64,000 bases of DNA from Blastocatellia bacterium (GCA_963765495.1 CAVXWP010000006.1:32001-96000); one strand, 5' to 3'; shown: positions 9,028-11,449, numbered from the stretch's first letter. Notes: generated from the letters alone by a model not told the origin. Numbers and translations: made by a program.

Positions 9028-9336
9028 ATTCTCATCCGTGAGCAATCATCAAAATAATCTCTACCCTGTGTGGGCCGAATCAACACTCGGGTCGCAATAA
9101 TCGGGCGGAACCTCTTACAAAACCGGAACCCGCTCAAAGATTGCGAGGCCTGCCAGAATTTTATCACAGCAACCTGCCCGGAGATAAGAAGCCTCCGCCG
9201 CAACGCAAAATCGCTATGAGAACGGGTGGGAAGAGACCGCGCCCCATCAAAGATAAATAAAGCAGGCAAACAAACTATCGACTGGTTTGCATCGTAACCT
9301 ATAATGTATTACGGCCTTTCTTTGAGAGGTAAACAA

Positions 9337-10347
9337 ATGAGTGAAGCAGCAAATGACAAGGAAAATCAGATGCAGGCAGCGCTTGCGAAGATAACCGGCA
9401 GAGTGACGCGCAAACGCCTTGCCTATTGGATGCGGATGGCCGGTATGATCACATTAGGCACGGCCGGGTCGCTCACCTTGCTGATCGGCGCGGCGAGTTA
9501 TCCGCTTTCGGAATTGCTTATTCGTCCGAGGCTCAAGCGCCTTTTGCATCTGAAAAGCCCGCACCTGAGACGTTTGATAGAGCGTTTGAGGATCGAGTTT
9601 GAAGATGTGATAATCCGGTCATTCGATGGAACGCGGCTCTGCGGATGGTGGATGCAAGCGGGGGAATCGGCTCCTACCGTAATCGTGTTGCACGGCGTAA
9701 AGAAGAATCGCACGGATGTATTGCGCACGGCGTTGATGCTCAGACAAACCGGGTTCAATGTTCTCATCCTGGACGGGCGCGCCCACGGAAACAGCGAAGG
9801 CCGCTTTGTCACCTACGGATTTAACGAAAGGCGCGATGTTGAGACGGTCATCGAGTGGCTGATTGCGGAAAAAGGGATCGATAGAGATTTGATCGGGCTT
9901 GCAGGAGAATCAATGGGCGCGGCAATCGCCTTACAGGTAGCGGCTCATCATTCGTGGATAAAGGCGGTCTGGGCCGACAGCCCGTTCGCTTCCTTGCGCC
10001 GCATAGCCTCGGAGTACGTTCGCCGCGTGACGGGTCTACCCGATTCGGTCCTGACCCCTGTGTTGTGGACTACGCTCAGAGTAGCCAATTACCGTGGCAA
10101 ATTCGATGTTGATCTGGTTGATCCCCTGAAGATGGCGGCAAAGATACAGGCGCCCGTCTTTTTAGTGCATGGCACGGCCGATCAGTTGATTGAAACCGAG
10201 CATTCAAAAAATATCTACGACGCGCTTTCGGGCAAAAAGGAGCTATGGTTTGTCGAAGGCGCGCGCCACGCCAGATGCGCCCGTTTCGCCAAGCAGGAAT
10301 ACGGCGACCGCGTGACCCGATTCTTCCTTGAAAACCTGAAGAAGTAA
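9337..10347 (+). CDS. Alpha/beta hydrolase
   Basis: VIVLHG, DGRAHGNSEG, nucleophile elbow GESMG, VHGTAD, GARH. Confidence 0.9.
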   Translation: MSEAANDKENQMQAALAKITGRVTRKRLAYWMRMAGMITLGTAGSLTLLIGAASYPLSELLIRPRLKRLLHLKSPHLRRLIERLRIEFEDVIIRSFDGTRLCGWWMQAGESAPTVIVLHGVKKNRTDVLRTALMLRQTGFNVLILDGRAHGNSEGRFVTYGFNERRDVETVIEWLIAEKGIDRDLIGLAGESMGAAIALQVAAHHSWIKAVWADSPFASLRRIASEYVRRVTGLPDSVLTPVLWTTLRVANYRGKFDVDLVDPLKMAAKIQAPVFLVHGTADQLIETEHSKNIYDALSGKKELWFVEGARHARCARFAKQEYGDRVTRFFLENLKK

Positions 10348-10378: not shown

Positions 10379-10408
10379 TTGACACTTTCGCGTAAGGTCT
10401 GGTAACTT
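10379..10408 (+). promoter_or_regulatory. Sigma-70 promoter for tRNA-Asn
   Basis: Perfect -35 TTGACA (10379-10384), 18-nt spacer, -10-like TAACTT (10403-10408), 26 nt before the tRNA. Confidence 0.6.
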
Positions 10409-10468
10409 ACCCATTCCTTCGAAAGAAGGATTTTTCCTGAGTAGCTCAATGGCAGAGCATCCGGCTGT

Positions 10469-11361
10469 AAAGGATGAATGATCTTTGCAGCTTCCACAGG
10501 TGACTGTGGTTGAAAAACTGGGTGAATTCAAGGAAGCCTACGCTGGCTACGGTCAGTAGGGTAACCCTGAGCGAAGCCTGCTAAAAGGTAGTGCGCTTTT
10601 GAGTGCGCTGTCGGCAGGAACGTGCAGAGACTGAGATTGTGTTGCAATGAAAGTTCTACCATTGGTAGGAACGGAACTCAGATCTGCTATTGTTGGAATG
10701 GTGGCTGGAGACGCCGGGATCAGGAAGCAAAAAGGCTGCCGATCTGTGAGTCTCCGGATTACTCATGCTGAGAAACAGAGAGAGTATCTTGAATACAAAA
10801 GAGATATCCTCCAAAATCTGTTTAAGGGATGGGAAATTCCTATCAGACCAATCAATAATAGCGGATATCCAGGAGTCAGACTGGAAACTCGCAATCATCC
10901 CAAACTAAGAGCCATTTATAAATGGTTTTATAGCGAGGGAAAAAAGCGGTTTTCGAGGCAAATTCTCAACTATCTAACACCCATCGGGGTTGCTATTTGG
11001 TATATGGATGATGGTTCTCTCTCTTACAAGAAAAGAGAGGGAAAGGTTCACGGAAGAGAGGTCCATCTCAATACTTACTGCTCATTGGAGGAGGCTGAAG
11101 TTATCCAAGCCTACTTCAAGGAAGTATGGGATGTCTCTTGGACGGTGATTCCAAATAAAGGGCTTTTTCGGCTTAGGATGGGATCGAACGGGGCTAAAAA
11201 GTTCTTTATGATCATCAGTCCGTACATAATTCCGATGATGAGGTACAAAATAGATTTGGGGTACGTAAAGCAACACGATCAAAGCGCCCGGCAACTTTTT
11301 TCAATGCCAGAAGAGAGTTGATGAGATAGTCCGCCCCTATGTGAAAACATAGGATCAAGCG
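10469..11361 (+). ncRNA. Group I self-splicing intron (IC3-like core), 893 nt
   Basis: P1 CTGT|AAAG pairs with CTTTGCAG, giving a U.G pair at the splice site; P2 CCACAG-GTGA-CTGTGG; core elements GAATTCAAGGAAGCC, AACCCTGAGCGAAGCC, GTGCAGAGACT, GAGATAGTCC; P9 CCTATGT-GAAA-ACATAGG; terminal G at 11361. Confidence 0.92.
10647..11321 (+). CDS. Intron-encoded double-motif LAGLIDADG homing endonuclease
   Basis: Motif 1 AIVGMVAGDAGI and motif 2 LTPIGVAIWYMDDGS (LAGLIDADG_2-type); basic 224-aa protein; AT-richer than flanking genes; lies inside the intron. Confidence 0.9.
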   Translation: MKVLPLVGTELRSAIVGMVAGDAGIRKQKGCRSVSLRITHAEKQREYLEYKRDILQNLFKGWEIPIRPINNSGYPGVRLETRNHPKLRAIYKWFYSEGKKRFSRQILNYLTPIGVAIWYMDDGSLSYKKREGKVHGREVHLNTYCSLEEAEVIQAYFKEVWDVSWTVIPNKGLFRLRMGSNGAKKFFMIISPYIIPMMRYKIDLGYVKQHDQSARQLFSMPEES

Positions 11362-11414
11362 TAACCGGAGGGTTGTAGGTTCGAGTCCTACCTCAGGAGC
11401 CATTTTTTAGGAGC

Positions 11415-11449
11415 AGAGGGTCATCATTTCGATGGCCCTTTTGCTTTCT
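11415..11449 (+). terminator. Rho-independent terminator after the tRNA
   Basis: AGGGTCATC-ATTTC-GATGGCCCT stem-loop followed by TTTGCTTTCT. Confidence 0.65.

Follow-up and report, generated by a model that had tools for sequence, protein, structure and literature searches.

A stretch of 64,000 nucleotides from a Blastocatellia bacterium (GCA_963765495.1, CAVXWP010000006.1:32001-96000), hereafter termed the window, carries a tRNA-Asn(GUU) gene in two pieces. The 5′ exon (10435-10468) is 34 nt long, comprises nucleotides 1-35 in standard numbering and ends with C32 U33 G34 U35 (...CTGT). The 3′ exon (11362-11402) is 41 nt long, starts with TAACC and extends from U36 to the CCA end. The intervening sequence (10469-11361) is an 893 nt group I intron that starts with AAAGG, ends with ...AAGCG and contains an open reading frame (ORF) for a LAGLIDADG homing endonuclease. 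The exons, the intron with its structural elements and the ORF are all on the plus strand. It is very probable that the only tRNA-Asn(GUU) gene of this bacterium has been split at 35/36 by a mobile group I intron with a homing endonuclease gene.

The split tRNA-Asn gene

The insert separates nucleotides 35 and 36 (U35/U36) within the anticodon, and the junction cannot be slid on either side. When the exons are joined by script, ARAGORN returns a complete 75 nt tRNA-Asn(gtt) with all stems fully paired. With introns allowed, the same program finds the identical gene on the genome and reports it as i(35,893). The original prediction of a tRNA-Asn(GUU) interrupted at this site is thus borne out. 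Default ARAGORN detects 0 tRNAs across the window, and Rfam at gathering thresholds detects 0 families in it; standard finders therefore miss the split gene, as had been anticipated.

The host genome, with a completeness of 97.94%, has been assembled into 17 contigs that total 7.30 Mb. Its nearest named records are metagenome-assembled genomes (MAGs) of Blastocatellia/Pyrinomonadaceae, in agreement with the earlier assignment of the host to the acidobacteria. ARAGORN finds 49 uninterrupted tRNAs in this genome, none of which is a tRNA-Asn. Two further long-intron 'Asn' calls (L005, L006) are false positives with mismatched stems, long odd arms and no Rfam support. Long-intron calls for Thr, Arg(ccg), Arg(tcg) and Glu (L007-L010) were also rejected, on the Rfam check alone, which gave them no support. 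Because Asn is absent from the 49 uninterrupted tRNAs and the other long-intron 'Asn' calls are poor cloverleaves, the split gene is the sole recognisable tRNA-Asn gene of the host genome. The claim that it represents the only Asn isoacceptor holds at this level of completeness, and no acceptable second tRNA-Asn gene was found.

The two halves of the tRNA co-vary across the split in related copies. Two pairs of the acceptor stem, one of the anticodon stem and one of the T stem show compensated changes, and 100% of the cells are paired. This co-variation across the intron shows that the spliced tRNA is under selection.

Evidence for a group I intron

Related introns were collected in three ways. 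Species genomes were scanned with the protein as a guide, and the 80 loci that were kept include 4 further tRNA-Asn genes split at the identical site. Metagenome contigs were scanned with an exact 16 nt core motif and gave at least 80 loci, with counts that represent samples; at least 17 of these resemble the window locus, and at least 13 are tRNA-Asn(GTT) genes split at 35/36. The third was a survey of the host family, 53 genomes. Most of the introns in relatives are 241-305 nt long and carry no ORF.

The Rfam group I model RF00028, run in E-value mode, matches the window at 10459-11353 over the full model (1-253) with 35.2 bits (E 4.6e-7), which is below the cut-off of 50 bits. The score is low because a 651 nt insert between P7 and P3′ is penalised. 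ORF-less relatives score 69-105 bits, and 8/8 of those tested are over the cut-off. A match to the group I covariance model, as called for by the original prediction, was thus obtained above threshold for the ORF-less relatives and below it for the window copy.

Covariation was analysed with a model that combines the stems of the tRNA with P1-P9 and with the P3/P7 pseudoknot, in one set of 17 ORF-less pre-tRNAs and another of 6 ORF-bearing copies. In the ORF-less set, 98.0% of 1473 cells are paired and 26/90 pairs have changed on both sides. Controls in which strands were slid by 1-3 columns give 34-44% paired cells and 1-9 two-sided changes in this set (34-46% paired over both sets), and 0/500 shuffles are at or above the observed values. 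The ORF-bearing set behaves similarly, with 97.6% of 551 cells paired and two-sided changes in 25/94 pairs. The U·G pair at the splice site is invariant in 23/23 copies (17/17 ORF-less and 6/6 ORF-bearing). The pairs of P7 are nearly invariant, and covariation neither supports nor contradicts this helix. Taken with the RF00028 match over the full model and the scores of the relatives, covariation in the 23 copies substantiates the group I core that had been proposed. Three other classes of element, namely IStron, group II intron and archaeal-type intron, were weighed and rejected; the sole long ORF is the LAGLIDADG ORF, and the sole matching intron family is RF00028.

Anatomy of the intron

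The P1 hairpin (10464-10491) consists of 10464-10472 paired with 10483-10491 and has the splice-site wobble U10468·G10487. It is closed by a 10 nt loop, L1 (10473-10482). P2 (10494-10509) has 6 bp and a GNRA loop, GTGA; 100% of its cells are paired, with compensatory changes, in both alignment sets. The 5′ strand of P3 (10518-10524) pairs across the ORF with its 3′ strand (11285-11291), an element of both alignment sets in which two pairs are compensated in each set. The P4-P5-P5a domain (10528-10570) comprises P4 (10528-10533/10565-10570), P5 (10537-10538/10560-10561) and P5a (10543-10546/10553-10556), and 4/4 pairs of P5a co-vary in both sets. P6 (10577-10618), with a variable extension, is formed by 10577-10581 and 10614-10618 and is also found in both sets.

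The 5′ strand of P7 (10624-10632) pairs with 11328-11334 and makes a pseudoknot with P3. By analogy with other group I introns, the pair 10627/11332, beside a bulged A, is presumably the guanosine-binding pair. The 3′ strand of P7 (11328-11334) is preceded by a conserved J8/7, and positions 11318-11333 are invariant across all aligned copies. P8 (11292-11320) is formed by 11292-11301 and 11311-11320 and overlaps the stop codon of the ORF, TGA at 11319-11321. P9 (11336-11353) has 7 bp and a GAAA loop, with 5/7 pairs compensated in the ORF-less set and 4/7 in the ORF-bearing set. The terminal G (omega G, 11361) adjoins the 3′ splice site, and its column is invariant in both alignments (A4, A5). 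Both the U before the splice site paired with G in P1 and the intron-terminal G had been pointed out previously, and both are confirmed as invariant in the aligned copies.

The 651 nt insert of the window copy, located between P7 and P3′, holds the ORF and is closed by an 11 bp stem at the P7.1 position (10635-10645 paired with 11270-11280), which loops the ORF out. In the 6 ORF-bearing copies, 89.4% of the cells of this stem are paired and three pairs are compensated. The spacer between P7 and P3′ is a hairpin of 33-39 nt in ORF-less copies versus 651-652 nt in 6/6 ORF-bearing copies. An internal motif of this hairpin is strictly conserved in 25/25 related ORF-less copies (an example is L110:13301-13644) and is missing in 6/6 LAGLIDADG-bearing copies. 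The compact P2-P9 core, the GNRA L2 and the GAAA L9 would fit subgroup IC3; a conserved hairpin such as the one that separates P7 from P3′ is not known to belong to that subgroup.

The LAGLIDADG open reading frame

The ORF (10647-11321) is intact and encodes 224 amino acids. Its final ∼50 nt double as the 3′ strand of P7.1, P3′ and P8. The translated sequence matches PF03161 (LAGLIDADG_2) over the whole profile (positions 1-168 of 168), with 118 bits against a cut-off of 25 (E 5.3e-34). The first motif spans residues ∼14-23 and includes D22; the second spans ∼115-123 and includes D121 and D122. In 24 sequences, D22 is conserved in at least 90%, and D121, D122 and G123 are invariant.

The nearest solved relatives by sequence are I-SceI and a 6x1j chain (I-WcaI by title), with E 1.2e-19. 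A structure prediction (pLDDT 91.6, pTM 0.86) has I-WcaI and I-SceI as its best matches in the PDB, with a TM score of 0.74, and the model displays a predicted two-lobed alpha-beta-beta-alpha-beta-beta-alpha fold. The identification of the ORF as LAGLIDADG is therefore upheld by the PF03161 match, the two motifs and the I-SceI-like fold. The ratio of nonsynonymous to synonymous change (dN/dS) is 0.07-0.16 in 15/15 pairs of 6 intact orthologues, indicative of purifying selection. A second copy of the ORF was not found in the host genome.

Other nuclease genes in the intron family

Five copies of the intron (L139, L146, L217, L218, L224) carry a different ORF, in the P1 loop. As submitted to Pfam it has ∼125 amino acids, and the two copies tested score 21.7 and 22.1 bits with PF01844, an HNH family whose cut-off is 21.4. 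In the examples L217:1018-1392 and L146:269-637, the reading frame continues through P1′, P2 and P3. Progressively shorter remnants of the HNH ORF are present in L219, L223, L170 and L011. The 9 nt piece ATGATCTTT, which is the 3′ part of L1 in the window together with the adjoining bases of the P1 3′ strand, matches by eye the leader of the L1 HNH ORF of L224 as well as the partly deleted HNH forms in L170 and L011. Judged from this similarity, the L1 region of the window (∼10477-10486) is likely to be the scar of a lost HNH endonuclease gene.

A third nuclease gene, of the LAGLIDADG_3 type, lies where J3/4 meets P4 in a copy of the intron that is ordinary in other respects (L112:2339-2752; 138 amino acids, 25.1 bits). 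A further locus, in an Anaerolineae MAG (L015:826-2207), has a tRNA gene with a CAT anticodon that is broken after U33 and before C34, with the splice site placed by eye; ARAGORN miscalls this gene as tRNA-Pro. Its intron scores 29 bits with RF00028 and contains a LAGLIDADG gene that is 52% identical to the window protein and is likewise situated between P7 and P3′.

Distribution of the intron and its open reading frame

Within the host family, 14 of the 53 genomes have the intron, 29 have abutting exons and no intron, and 10 give no match; of these last, 8 are 90% complete or less and 2 are 94% complete. The LAGLIDADG ORF is found in two of the 14 intron-plus genomes, the window genome (G000) and G005. 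Both intron states occur within each of four genera (g4, g8, g9 and g13). The survey of relatives that the original prediction had proposed thus reveals intron-plus and intron-minus alleles. Of the fetched loci, ARAGORN recognised 11 as interrupted Asn genes and miscalled two others (L221, L222) whose exons are plainly Asn; 14/16 exon-only loci have an uninterrupted Asn gene. The hydrolase gene upstream of the tRNA is common to 4 intron-plus and 6 intron-minus relatives. As the upstream gene is the same in both, these represent alleles at a single locus. Of 401 genomes sampled evenly from the phylum, 5 match, and two from outside the family are confirmed as Asn 35/36 introns. One soil DNA run contains exact pieces of the window intron together with an intron-less tRNA-Asn allele.

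Three sequencing runs were examined for the locus and yielded contigs only, a form of data in which splicing would not be visible. Exact 10468|11362 joints were considered as possible spliced RNA and rejected. They occur in DNA runs and therefore represent intron-less alleles. A run labelled metatranscriptomic, and flagged 'probably DNA', contains pieces of relatives only and no joint.

Between G000 and G005, the LAGLIDADG ORF has a synonymous divergence (pS) of 0.33 and 88% amino acid identity, and the adjoining hydrolase gene has a pS of 0.78, which is saturated, and 69% amino acid identity. The divergence of the ORF, far below that of its neighbour, suggests that the ORF arrived after the hosts had diverged and has spread horizontally. 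In a weakly resolved tree built on 218 columns from 31 intron cores, the ORF-bearing introns do not fall together. The best tree requires 4 changes, and well-supported branches force at least two. One clade with support of 100/99 includes two LAGLIDADG-bearing cores, two empty ones, one with HNH and one with the other LAGLIDADG type.

Proposed mechanism and alternative explanations

The primary transcript would fold into P1-P9, with P3 formed across the ORF and P7 making the guanosine pocket. In P1, exon nucleotides 31-35 and the first bases of the intron would pair with the internal guide at 10483-10491, which places U35·G at the splice site. In the first step, an external guanosine would attack after U35; in the second, the freed exon would attack after the terminal G11361 to produce mature tRNA-Asn. 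The exons would probably be aligned for the second step via the anticodon stem rather than by P10. A 1993 study of Anabaena is said, in its title, to have found that exon pairing in the anticodon stem is required. The encoded protein, predicted to be a monomeric enzyme of the I-SceI type, would most likely cut the anticodon region of an intron-less tRNA-Asn gene, whereby the intron is copied into it (homing). If so, the element may be mobile at present.

Several observations weigh against this mechanism or fit it less well. The window copy is below the RF00028 cut-off, as noted above; its P4 has one A·C mismatch (10531/10567); and P10 has 2 bp at most, by eye. The ORF-bearing copies lack the conserved hairpin motif and may be impaired in unaided folding. 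A scan for sigma-70 consensus promoters gave 0 sites. RNA runs were looked for and none is listed with the locus, so that splicing and expression are both predictions. The argument for transfer concerns one flanking gene and one pair of genomes, and in the core tree 6/28 inner branches are starred. Lastly, purifying selection on the ORF would fit a maturase equally well, the endonuclease role being predicted from sequence.

The most probable of the alternatives, itself unlikely, is that the intron is genuine but its LAGLIDADG protein at present functions mainly or only as a maturase, and that the element is kept by dependence rather than by homing. Entry of the ORF would have cost the ribozyme a stabilising peripheral motif, such that maturation of tRNA-Asn would need the protein of the intron. 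The hairpin motif found in 25/25 ORF-less and 0/6 ORF-bearing copies is what this explanation would expect, and strong purifying selection on the ORF is in line with it. Matches to the fold include the bI3 maturase and the bifunctional I-AniI (ranks 6, 14 and 29), but the best matches are true endonucleases. A Thermotoga LAGLIDADG protein whose activity resembles that of a maturase is reported in PMC3984707. On the other hand, the acidic residues of both motifs are retained in the Blastocatellia protein, and between two genera the ORF has diverged much less than the gene beside it, which fits a recent transfer. The two roles can also coexist.

An improbable alternative is that the intron is an immobile, vertically inherited relic whose patchy distribution results from repeated precise loss only. 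The identical upstream gene in the 10 relatives with matching flank, exon variants that partly track the intron lineages and an ORF restricted to 2/14 intron-plus family genomes are compatible with such a history. A synonymous divergence of 0.33 in the ORF against a saturated 0.78 in the flank is not, nor is the mixture of intron states within genera. The relic must also account for an intron family in which three different nuclease genes occupy three sites, together with decaying HNH copies, which are the expected trace of repeated invasion and decay.

It is highly improbable that the split gene is dead and that a working tRNA-Asn gene lies in the unassembled ∼2% of the genome: with 17 contigs and 97.94% completeness a tRNA gene might be left out, as sometimes happens in assembly, but across many species the halves co-vary and remain perfectly complementary, no abutting exon pair is found elsewhere in the other 13 family genomes that have the intron, and two more 'missing' tRNAs of the host genome are likewise explained by interrupted genes. 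Among these 13 genomes, G012 alone has one extra exon match, which is weak, partial and 30 nt long.

Comparison with known systems

The classical bacterial settings of tRNA group I introns are Leu.3Ug, fMet.2Ug, Ile2.5Ug and Arg.5Ug, all of subgroup IC3 (Williams, 2020; bioRxiv 10.1101/2020.01.27.920355). Like these introns of tRNA-Leu(UAA), tRNA-fMet, tRNA-Ile(CAU) and of tRNA-Arg(CCU), the Asn intron is a small ribozyme in the anticodon loop, with a U before the 5′ site, a terminal G, a P1 made from anticodon-arm bases, a GNRA L2, a GAAA L9 and a patchy distribution. It differs from the four in its host, tRNA-Asn(GUU), in its site at 35/36 ('position 4'), in the extra conserved hairpin between P7 and P3′ and in the LAGLIDADG gene. 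With tFind, 17 further tRNA/site classes were claimed, 21 in all, with introns of up to 922 nt that are possibly coding (Williams, 2020). The logic of discovery was similar to that used here, i.e. long introns from ARAGORN combined with a group I covariance model. The running text of that paper has no mention of Asn, Acidobacteria, homing, LAGLIDADG or any other nuclease family, but its class list is in images and may already include Asn position 4.

The placement of the nuclease gene has a precedent in the group I introns of the tmRNA T-loop. According to PMC11915505, LAGLIDADG genes are found in 23/844 of these, 19 of them 'in the P7.1 region'. The tmRNA introns resemble the Asn intron in having LAGLIDADG at P7.1 in a minority of copies while most copies are ORF-less. 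They differ in host, the tmRNA T-loop rather than a tRNA anticodon, and the likeness described here concerns placement. The 'group I introns' of cyanobacterial tRNAs in PMC5733544 are inserts of 22-49 nt and are not comparable.

At the protein level, the monomeric LAGLIDADG enzymes I-SceI and I-WcaI, from group I introns of mitochondrial rRNA genes, share with the window protein the PF03161 family, two motifs in a chain of ∼225 amino acids and the fold (TM 0.74). Identity is 21-24%, and the window ORF has a bacterial host and a tRNA gene rather than an rRNA gene as its predicted target. The nuclease I-Ssp6803I, encoded by the tRNA-fMet intron of Synechocystis, belongs to the PD-(D/E)XK family. 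It is alike in being encoded in an intron of a bacterial tRNA anticodon loop and in having the intron-less anticodon region as its target, and is unlike in nuclease family, tRNA and site.

The kind of intron, the mechanism and the placement of the ORF are therefore all precedented. A search of the literature gave no paper that names a group I intron in tRNA-Asn, nor one that names a LAGLIDADG gene within the intron of a bacterial tRNA, with the class list of Williams (2020) unreadable. In the literature searched, three features appear undescribed: the tRNA that serves as host together with the site, this nuclease family in an intron of a tRNA, and the turnover of several nucleases.

Other interrupted tRNA genes and flanking features

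Three tRNA genes of the host genome are split, those for Asn, Leu(UAA) and Arg(UCU). The sole tRNA-Leu(UAA) gene (L003:201-516; G000:C12:68327-68642) has an insert of 229 nt, which ends in G, between U34 and A35. Across the 53 family genomes, 8 have this insert in full and 5 have it with ∼500 nt extra; most others are uninterrupted. The sole tRNA-Arg(UCU) gene (L004:201-873, minus strand; G000:C1:1074195-1074867) has an insert of 597 nt after U34, also ending in G, which contains a 171-amino-acid HNH_3 ORF (PF13392, 44 bits). Relatives have short forms, long forms and uninterrupted genes. RF00028 gives no match to either insert even at E up to 10, and for this reason the two are candidate group I introns, judged by their splice-site letters and a resemblance seen by eye.

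Downstream of the split tRNA-Asn gene, a terminator-like hairpin followed by a T run is located at 11415-11441 on the plus strand, 13 nt after the CCA end, as detected by a consensus scan only. Upstream, another terminator-like hairpin with a T run (10415-10430) ends 5 nt ahead of the first base of the tRNA; it may serve as the terminator of the hydrolase gene upstream (9304-10347) or belong to the tRNA leader. A perfect TTGACA is found at 10380-10385, and no consensus -10 sequence passed the scan. In several relatives (L013:1190-1265; L110, L118, L132, L143), a tRNA-Ala(CGC) gene is located ∼30 nt upstream of the split tRNA-Asn. According to ARAGORN, this gene is absent upstream of the tRNA-Asn of the window and from the host genome as a whole.

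Biological implications

Annotation pipelines would report tRNA-Asn as missing in the host genome and in at least 13 relatives, and tRNA-Leu(UAA) and tRNA-Arg(UCU) would likewise be reported as missing in the host genome. Inferences on genome completeness and codon usage drawn from such reports would therefore be wrong. The predicted I-SceI-like enzyme would be a new meganuclease with a highly conserved tRNA sequence as its predicted target.

The intron family represents a compact natural system for the invasion, decay and replacement of homing endonuclease genes. Its parts are empty introns, the LAGLIDADG gene at P7.1, the HNH gene of the L1 loop and, at another position, a second type of LAGLIDADG gene, along with decaying HNH remnants and empty alleles in the same soil. 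The host family also has polymorphic interrupted tRNA-Leu(UAA) and tRNA-Arg(UCU) genes. A more speculative proposal, which we consider doubtful, is that the LAGLIDADG gene on entry replaced the conserved ribozyme motif and thereby created a need for a maturase, an addiction-like lock-in of all Asn decoding. The family would then be a time series of the homing cycle in free-living soil bacteria, with three unrelated nucleases at three sites. With the intron in the sole tRNA-Asn gene, decoding of Asn would depend on splicing, and an essential single-copy decoding function would have been set behind an RNA-catalysed step in common soil bacteria.

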